64,000 nucleotides of DNA. Source: Octopus vulgaris (lineage: Eukaryota). Where the stretch lies: contig OX597835.1 in the NCBI GenBank assembly GCA_951406725.2, positions 12,958,001-13,022,000 on the forward strand. Reading direction: 5' to 3'. Positions 56,871 to 58,454 of this stretch are shown one piece after another (position 1 is the stretch's first letter; each line of letters opens with the position of its first letter). Made by a program: the position numbers and the translations under genes. Below the pieces are notes generated by a model. That model saw only the letters and a list, made by a program, of their open reading frames with translations. It was not told where the DNA came from and did no database searches.

Positions 56871-57213
56871 ATGTATGTATGTATGTATGTATATGTGTAT
56901 GTATGTATATATATATGTACCTTTCCTGGGTAGAATCATCACAAATGATGAAAAGTGGATTCCTGTAATTATATCTAATGAAAACAATAATGGTAAGTAC
57001 CCAGTGTGATAGAAGAATCCATTCCCAAATCCGGACTTCACCCCCAAAATTTTCGATTTTTGGCGGAATATGAAATATGTTACCTATCATGAAGTGTTAA
57101 ACCAAAATAAATCGGTAAATGCGAAAAGTTTGTCATTACTTGGAAGCATTTCACAAAAATTTGTAGGAAACGTATTTGTAGCGGGTAAGTTTTTTGGCCA
57201 CTACTTCTGGTCT

Positions 57214-57540
57214 GATCTGAGAGTAGTCCTAAAAAGGACTGTTATCGCATTCGAGGGTAGCCCTTAAAAGGATGGTTATCGCAATTAGATCCGATCCAAG
57301 AATAGTCCTAAAAAGGACTGTTATCGTAATTAGATCGGATCTGAGAGTAGTCCTAAAATGGATTGTTATCGCATTCGAGGGTAGCCCTTAAAAGGACAGT
57401 TATCGCAATTAGATCCGATCCAAGAATAGTTCTAAAAAGGACTGTTATCGTAATTAGATCAGACCTGAGAGTAGTCCTAAAAAGGACTGTTATCGCATTC
57501 AGATCAGACTTGAATTAGTCCTGAAAAGGACTGTGGTCGT
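57214..57540 (-). repeat. Eight hairpin units in a 124-bp higher-order repeat, resembling the histone 3' stem-loop
   Basis: Hairpins at 57225, 57259, 57304, 57349, 57383, 57428, 57473, 57517; minus strand AAC-AGTCCT-TTTY-AGGACT-A. Confidence 0.85.
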
Positions 57541-57714
57541 AATCAGCAAAACTGGACAGACGAAAGCAGTAGTTGAAATGATGAGCAGACAAGAGGTGTA
57601 AGTTTATACAGCGATTTATTTCAGGCGTGAAATAGCAGTGCAAAGGTTCAAGGCGGTGTGAGTGGCGAGCGTGGCAGGCGAGAGGGACATGATTTACATC
57701 TGTGCCAAAAAGCC

Positions 57715-57908
57715 AACTGCCTTTACAGCAATTTATGATGTCTATTTATACAAAAATATCAGCAGTGATGTTTAACCAGTGTCCAATAGAATGGCAGGTA
57801 GGTAGCTTTTGTCCAATGAAAGGTCAGGCAAGTCGCTGGAGGTAGTTGCTTTTGTTTTCTTTGGTGATGGCAGATGTATTTCTGGTGTCTGTGCAAGTTA
57901 CTTCCGGT
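57715..57908 (-). promoter_or_regulatory. Pol II promoter: ETS, two CCAAT boxes, TATA, Inr
   Basis: ACCGGAAGT 57900-57908; CCAAT at 57813 and 57783; TATAAATA 57750-57743; GCAGTT with its A 32 nt downstream of the TATA start. Confidence 0.55.
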
Positions 57909-58454
57909 GACTGTACATATTCTTTGTTAGTCATTTGTAAAAGGTGTATATGATAATATAAATCTCCATGTTACCCAGGTCACTCAGGAAGAGATTATGG
58001 TGCTAAATATCAAAGTTTCACCTAATCCTCCGTGACCCCTGACCTCGTTCCGTTCGACTGTTGGTTTTTCAGCTAAGTGCAGCATCATTTTGAGGGAAAC
58101 CAGTTTATTAATTGTGAAATGCTTAAAGTGATATTGGGAGTTTCTTTGTTTCAAAACCTGAAATATTTCATGCCTAAGGGATCAAGAATTTACCAACTCG
58201 ACAGGATTTGAATATAAATAATAAAATATTTATTTTGATTAAATATAGCAATTAAGACCAAAGAAACAGATGTTTCTTTCCCATCTTCAAATACAACTTG
58301 ATGTTTTTCCTACAACCTAATTATGTGTATGTGCATGTATATATATATATATGTATGTGTGTATATACATAGTCTATGTATATATATTGTCTATGTGTAT
58401 ATATATACATACACATGTACACATATTCATATACATAATGACGATGATATATAT

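Follow-up and report, generated by a model that had tools for sequence, protein, structure and literature searches.

The histone 3' stem-loop (RF00032) is recognised by SLBP, which reads the G-C at position 2 of the stem, the closing U-A pair and the first and third uridines of the loop. In animals, SLBP is regarded as specific for replication-dependent histone mRNAs. According to the accessible parts of the literature, the position 2 G-C and loop U3 are diagnostic of the histone stem-loop (bioRxiv 10.64898/2026.10.14.759114), SLBP also contacts adenines 5' of the stem (PMC10388802, PMC12775136), and these are required for full affinity (PMC10388802). In the available text of the respective papers, SLBP engages export and translation factors (PMC12775136), and its cross-links in HeLa cells fall on histone mRNAs only (PMC4604434).

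The nearest published case to the locus described here, judging from the accessible text, is the U7-pairing motif of human LTR12/HERV1, an LTR with U7-complementary HDE-like motifs that is repressed by U7 snRNA (PMC11417402). In both LTR12 and the octopus LTR a histone 3'-end signal is present several times close to the transcript start, beside CCAAT boxes, but LTR12 carries the U7-pairing element whereas the octopus LTR carries the SLBP-side hairpin and no U7 element. The Cassandra, Helenus and Ajax TRIMs also have a piece of cellular RNA within the LTR; as described in the available part of PMC10886601 these are tRNA or 5S RNA polymerase III promoters, whereas the octopus LTR has a tandem, putative protein-binding hairpin and belongs to a family with coding copies. 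With the CsRn1/PwRn1 clade the octopus element shares the marks of that clade, i.e. a 4-bp duplication, a CX2HX9CX3C Gag motif, the order PR-RT-RH-IN and a primer site putatively of the tRNA-Trp type, and no histone-type hairpin appears in the part of the clade's description that is available (PMC2582038). In our literature searches we found no report of histone stem-loops in an LTR.

Here we analyse a window of 64,000 nucleotides from Octopus vulgaris, whose minus strand contains eight tandem hairpins inside an LTR. The preferred explanation, to which we assign a probability of roughly 0.55, is that the array consists of SLBP-binding hairpins on the 5' leader of the element RNA, likely aiding export or translation when SLBP is present. 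The units share with the histone stem-loop the six-pair stem, the U-Y-U-N loop, G2-C, the closing U-A and the pyrimidine and purine arms, and in the family of the window LTR also a host-like 5' flank. They differ in their basal pair, which is A-U or open, in being tandem and in scoring below the Rfam cut-off, and the array as a whole differs in having no histone ORF, no U7 element and a predicted position in a 5' leader. The array likely works like the histone signal at the SLBP-binding step.

The window LTR and its family

On the minus strand, positions 57177-57917 form a 741-bp LTR with TG...CA ends. It is flanked by a 4-bp target-site duplication, AATA in the minus-strand reading, with the left copy at 57918..57921 and the right copy at 57173..57176. 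The element is a solo LTR of a CsRn1-like Gypsy family, here called family A, to which it was assigned via the full-length copies L041-L043. The sequence-only reading had called the region a putative LTR, and the ends, the duplication and the full-length relatives bear this out.

All predicted signals lie on the same strand. The predicted U3 has two reversed CCAAT boxes (57783..57817), putatively functional and both present in copy L008 too, followed by a predicted TATA box (TATAAA, 57745..57750); family A transcription would start about 25-30 nt downstream of the latter. An AATAAA poly(A) signal lies at 57615..57620 and is intact in 27/30 family A copies. The poly(A) addition site, 57599..57600, was placed using a contig of an L029-type copy and is the predicted R/U5 border, and the hairpin array (57225..57532) is in the predicted U5. 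The particular solo LTR in the window is probably inert.

A DNA search of the genome (2.8 Gb, 227 contigs) gave 61 matches, 40 of the 61 candidates were scored and 30 loci were retrieved. Nine of the 30 loci have a clear 4-bp duplication (L001, L002, L006, L007, L008, L019, L021, L025, L030). A search for the full-length element had been proposed, and it was found in L041-L043, which have two LTRs, a primer site, gag (DUF7041), protease, RT, RNase H, integrase and a purine tract, with broken reading frames and no sign of env. The two LTRs of L041 are 96.6% alike, the order PR-RT-RNase H-integrase is seen in L042 (Pfam), and the Gag motif CX2HX9CX3C is intact in L043 and altered in L041 and L042. 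From the gene orientation in these copies, the minus strand of the window is the sense strand of the element, and the hairpin lies on it. After the 5' LTR, TGGTGACCCCGAC forms the primer-binding site, a putative match to tRNA-Trp. By these shared marks family A appears to be a CsRn1-like Gypsy; the tree covered sequences of this genome only.

The number of units is between 2 and 18 in the 29 of 30 loci where anchoring was possible, six of which cluster on C23 and are not independent; 18 loci have four units. The 18 units of L002 are largely two types in alternation. Family A and its array also turned up in the DNA-type runs from organisms B, D and E, where the array holds too few variants for a covariation analysis. 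At L044/L045 (G000:C4:99571300-99585000) an insert several kb long, carrying LINE-like frames, interrupts a family A 3' LTR.

The hairpin array

The eight units are located on the minus strand at 57532-57517 (unit 1), 57488-57473 (unit 2), 57443-57428 (unit 3), 57398-57383 (unit 4), 57364-57349 (unit 5), 57319-57304 (unit 6), 57274-57259 (unit 7) and 57240-57225 (unit 8). Units 1, 2, 6 and 8 have full stems with six Watson-Crick pairs, and the imperfect stems of units 3, 4, 5 and 7 have one or two mismatches. Unit 1 has the loop UUUC, and unit 2 has the 5' flank ATAAC found in host H2B genes. The units are spaced by 44-45 and 34 bp, and a three-unit repeat of 124 bp occurs twice, as units 2-4 and 5-7, with starts at 57488, 57364 and 57240. 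Eight tandem units, four perfect stems and the higher-order repeat had all been read from the sequence at these minus-strand positions, and all were confirmed; the proposed loop UUUY applies to most units, while two have UUUA.

Shuffled DNA contains the paired core about 1.1e-6 times per base, and a genome-wide search with the tandem pattern found 102 matches, compared with 0 for the reversed control, so the array is not due to chance. In the window context the predicted folding is 0.00 for unit 5, 0.01 for unit 7 and 0.53 for unit 8. For the four units of copy L008 in the leader context it is 0.81-0.99.

Comparison with host histone genes

The Rfam Histone3 model (RF00032) matches three of the eight window units, and the best score, 23.9 bits for unit 8, is below the gathering cut-off of 34, so the cmsearch proposed by the sequence-only reading gave no hit above threshold. 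This is weak counter-evidence, since the same cut-off missed every stem-loop of a true histone cluster (L238, see below). A wide Rfam scan was dominated by microsatellite matches. Because the model also scores the downstream element, and because it missed the true cluster, the comparison was made with the host's own histone genes, using 27 distinct contexts 3' of H2A, H2B, H3 and H4-type frames.

The LTR units are near identical to the host H2B stem-loop, including the 5' flank. Several host H2B genes read ATAAC GGTCCT TTTC AGG(A/G)CC ACCC, and family A units read ATAAC AGTCCT TTTT AGGACT ACTC and similar. Host loops are TTTC, TTTA, TTTT and TCTA, and host pair 3 is C-G, U-A or U-G. The sole constant difference is the basal pair, which is G-C in 27/27 host contexts and almost never so in the LTR units (one G-U among 141 family A units), where it is A-U or open (open in 38/141 family A units and 23/80 units of family C, see below). 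In the perfect units the second G-C, the loop uridines and the closing U-A are retained and the basal pair is A-U, as had been noted from the window alone. Scored with a matrix of host flanks, the 5' flank of family A is in the top 1% and the 3' flank in the top 9%.

The likeness to the host ends about 5 nt outside the hairpin and extends to neither a UTR nor a U7 element. With the host downstream-element matrix no U7-pairing element, which is expected 10-20 nt after the stem, was found behind the LTR units: family A spacers score -5.3 to 0.1, against 4.1-9.3 for the host (leave-one-out) and a background median of -3.6. No histone ORF was seen around the window array, so both absences stated by the sequence-only reading, of a histone ORF and of a purine-rich U7 element, hold. 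An SLBP RNA-binding domain that includes the TPNK motif is encoded in the host genome (G000:C8:59843222-59843566). A single U7 snRNA candidate, which scores 28.7 bits (below the cut-off) and lies at an apparent intron/exon border, was not used.

The hairpin in related LTR lineages

Among related RT matches beyond family A, 40 of 147 places were sampled. Two further families, B and C (loci L055-L057, L065, L067-L091, L116, L122-L155), form one RT group outside A and D (midpoint root; support for A+D 90/90). Their RT is 66-71% identical to that of family A, and their LTRs have no similarity to the family A LTR once the hairpins are excluded. Family B has one hairpin about 40 nt 3' of the TATA box in 25/25 LTR-homology loci and in L057, with the hairpins picked by a lenient motif; L058 and L059 gave none. 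Most family C copies have two or three hairpins, and some have more. The C LTR has an additional hairpin deeper within, and in L154 and L155 family C forms short tandem TRIM-like arrays (LTR, primer site, about 200 nt, LTR) that keep the hairpins.

Six positions, i.e. G2-C15, the closing U-A and loop U1 and U3, are kept in 131-139/141 family A units (counting a false unit of a truncated copy and a unit with a loop deletion), in 26/26 B units and in 78-80/80 C units, the latter chosen via spacer anchors at loci some of which originated from the hairpin pattern search. Pairs 2-6 are each paired in 130-137/141 family A units. In the three families variation is concentrated at the basal pair, at pairs 3-4 and at positions 2 and 4 of the loop, and these are places where histone stem-loops vary too. 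In family B, none of the six critical columns varies, against 32/80 flank columns.

Of the 20 recurrent types, 10 have C-G at pair 4 and 9 have U-A, and the covariation score, inflated by relatedness, is 0.261 against 0.190 +/- 0.022 (0/500 shuffles). At pair 3, 126 units have U-G and one has C-A, as expected if the hairpin forms in sense-strand RNA, although these counts are of copies and reflect few events. Counted against one real family A copy, differences are found at 4/240 critical, 18/400 other hairpin and 46/1420 spacer sites, where a change private to the reference copy accounts for 10 of the 18. A lack of clear stem bias among family A copies is expected of dead copies. The stem covariation that had been proposed as a check is seen between LTR lineages, but without a clear conservation of stem over spacer within family A.

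Family D (L047-L051, L060, L061, L066) is the nearest RT relative of family A, young and intact, with LTR pairs 98-100% alike and long open pol frames. Neither family D nor about seven further LTR types have a histone-type hairpin in the leader, so the hairpin is dispensable for replication. An antisense hairpin-like match in the coding region of family D was taken as chance. E2F-type and CCAAT sites are found in the U3 of B and C, and also in D, whereas family A has only CCAAT; in B and C they are compatible with S-phase expression.

The near identity to H2B could also mean that the end of a histone mRNA was captured, copied into the LTR by template switching, multiplied by slippage and is now functionless. 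We regard this as unlikely, as the likeness stops just beyond the hairpin, two-sided changes relative to the host occur at pairs 1 and 4, and the hairpin is kept in two lineages with otherwise unalignable LTRs. These points have to be set against a shared 5' flank, a unit number that drifts from 2 to 18, a patchy distribution among LTR types and the missing stem bias in dead copies, all of which agree with a relic. The position 1 change in family A is moreover a G-to-A at a CpG, a probable mutation hot spot, and LTRs do take up cellular RNA pieces, according to the available part of PMC10886601.

Position of the array relative to the poly(A) site

In run X1 a contig, guessed to be RNA, ends in 21 T at 57599, and the depth is 340-375 upstream of the poly(A) signal against 13 in the array. 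The contig of run X17 stops at the poly(A) signal, and contigs of runs X4 and X7 continue through the array as far as the primer site. The deep contigs carry the flank of L029, a solo LTR in host sequence, which means that the poly(A) signal works and does not imply activity of the element. The poly(A) evidence thus comes from one copy with host read-through, in contigs that are guessed to be RNA and are possibly chimeric. An abundant host transcript apparently takes its poly(A) site from L029 (G000:C1:134635648), and this junction is seen in runs of three organisms.

With the poly(A) site upstream of it, the array falls in the predicted U5 and would be included only in RNA that starts in a 5' LTR, within the leader that precedes gag. 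The sequence-only reading had proposed from the upstream AATAAA that the array may be transcribed only by read-through, in the 5' LTR leader, and this is supported, with the signal used at one copy. Histone-type 3'-end formation at the array was rejected, as there is no U7 element and the poly(A) site lies upstream. We do not file the array among histone 3' ends, since three of the defining features fail.

Hairpins outside the Gypsy LTRs

A looser tandem search gave 318 matches against 36 in the control, and the following is drawn from the 100 matches listed. An old Helitron-like family, family F, has four tandem stem-loops close to its 3' end (L178, L179, L182-L215, e.g. G000:C4:30502390-30504690). 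It is non-autonomous and about 2.3 kb long. L179 begins with 5' TC, ends in a hairpin followed by CTAG and is inserted between A and T, which we take to be Helitron end features; the 3' end motif is found in 22/31 loci. Unit 1 is often host-perfect with an A-rich flank, and units 2 and 4 mostly have a basal A-U. Each hairpin is followed by a motif like the host H2B downstream element, with scores that are raised but not significant; we regard family F as a candidate DNA transposon with true histone-type 3' processing. Two two-hairpin matches (L180, L181) could not be grouped with any family and are probably chance.

Family F also bears on the possibility that the RNA structure is under selection because proteins of the element itself use it, Gag for packaging or dimerisation, with the histone likeness due to descent or convergence. 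Packaging signals of LTR elements lie in the 5' leader, which is where both lineages have the hairpin, the short non-coding LTR-primer site-LTR derivatives of family C retain it, and the flanks of B and C are poor for SLBP. Still, a Gag signal is improbable in our judgement: the same array is present in the Gag-less family F, the sister family D lacks it, and the fixed positions are those read by SLBP.

A metagenome scan gave seven matches, four of which (L237, L239, L240, L241) appear to be bacterial or coding and were excluded. L238:1291-3781 is a histone cluster with basal pairs G-C (H2B), C-G (H2A) and A-U (H1). Its H1 gene is followed by two tandem A-U-based hairpins, the second of which has the same 16 letters as LTR unit 1. 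A basal A-U is thus natural after a histone gene, though not in this host. L242:3001-3108, on a contig that matches SWIM weakly, is a five-unit A-U-type array whose period is 23 bp and whose spacers are A/C-rich. L236:118-184 has three A-U-type hairpins 3' of an ORF that matches only unnamed arthropod clusters and no Pfam family, and whose presumed resemblance to Polinton genes carries no weight here. Family F, L236 and L242 were found by pattern, so they show recurrence and not frequency. In viral contigs the RT search found nothing, and the tandem hairpin patterns gave 0 and 1 match, the latter a coding repeat.

A model of SLBP binding to the leader

According to the preferred explanation, a hairpin would have been tandemly expanded in the LTR of a CsRn1-like Gypsy, 3' of the LTR poly(A) signal. 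RNA from the 5' LTR would then read through 2-18 hairpins and the primer site into gag, and SLBP bound to the leader could bring export and translation partners to the unspliced RNA, without cleavage. The activity of the element would be tied to SLBP-rich cells, i.e. S phase or oocytes. The sequence-only reading had proposed recruitment or titration of SLBP/ERI1 for S-phase- or oocyte-coupled RNA control, and its interpretation is supported in part. In favour of SLBP binding to the leader we count the flank match, the near-fixed SLBP-read positions, the covariation, the retention in B and C, L238, family F, the folding and the host SLBP. Against it we count the Rfam shortfall, the open basal pairs, the U-rich flanks of B and C (at background on the host-flank matrix), the absence of the hairpin from family D and about seven other LTR types, the missing stem bias within family A, the non-folding units 5 and 7 and, from the accessible text, HeLa cross-linking confined to histone mRNAs (PMC4604434).

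SLBP might also bind and repress the RNA or promote its decay, by a cap-proximal block of scanning, by recruitment of UPF1 or as an SLBP sponge acting against histone mRNA. A protein bound near the cap can block scanning, as with the iron-responsive element, and the hairpins of B and C, about 40 nt 3' of the TATA box, are where this could happen; the family A array is about 200 nt from the inferred cap. Arrays of up to 18 units would suit a sponge, but a modest copy number (61 matches, 40/61 candidates scored) makes it a weak one. Even with UPF1 recruitment by SLBP described in the available part of PMC12775136, repression is distinctly unlikely. Very improbable, finally, is that the unit acts at the DNA level, as a palindrome bound by a dimeric transcription factor: the stem is an inverted repeat as DNA, tandem sites downstream of promoters are common and other small palindromes are present in the array spacers, but only one strand tolerates the U-G wobble, and the four bases between the arms are constrained to U-Y-U-N.

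If the leader does bind SLBP, it would be a natural non-histone target, with the hairpin acting 5' and without U7. The Gypsy leader hairpins would then be a cis-acting parallel to retroviral export elements, and an LTR element would have a mechanism to time its RNA to dividing or germ-line cells. A wider proposal, to which we give somewhat less than even odds, is that unrelated classes of mobile elements repeatedly evolve tandem stem-loop mimics that recruit SLBP. In Gypsy LTRs the hairpin would have moved to the 5' leader of a polyadenylated RNA and been uncoupled from 3' processing, and SLBP would serve there in export and translation, gated by the cell cycle or the oocyte. Natural variants of the basal pair, pairs 3/4, the flanks and the number of copies (1-18) form a series suited to direct binding and reporter tests.

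Elsewhere in the window, positions 15517-16560 contain a minisatellite with a period of about 20 bp across 1 kb.
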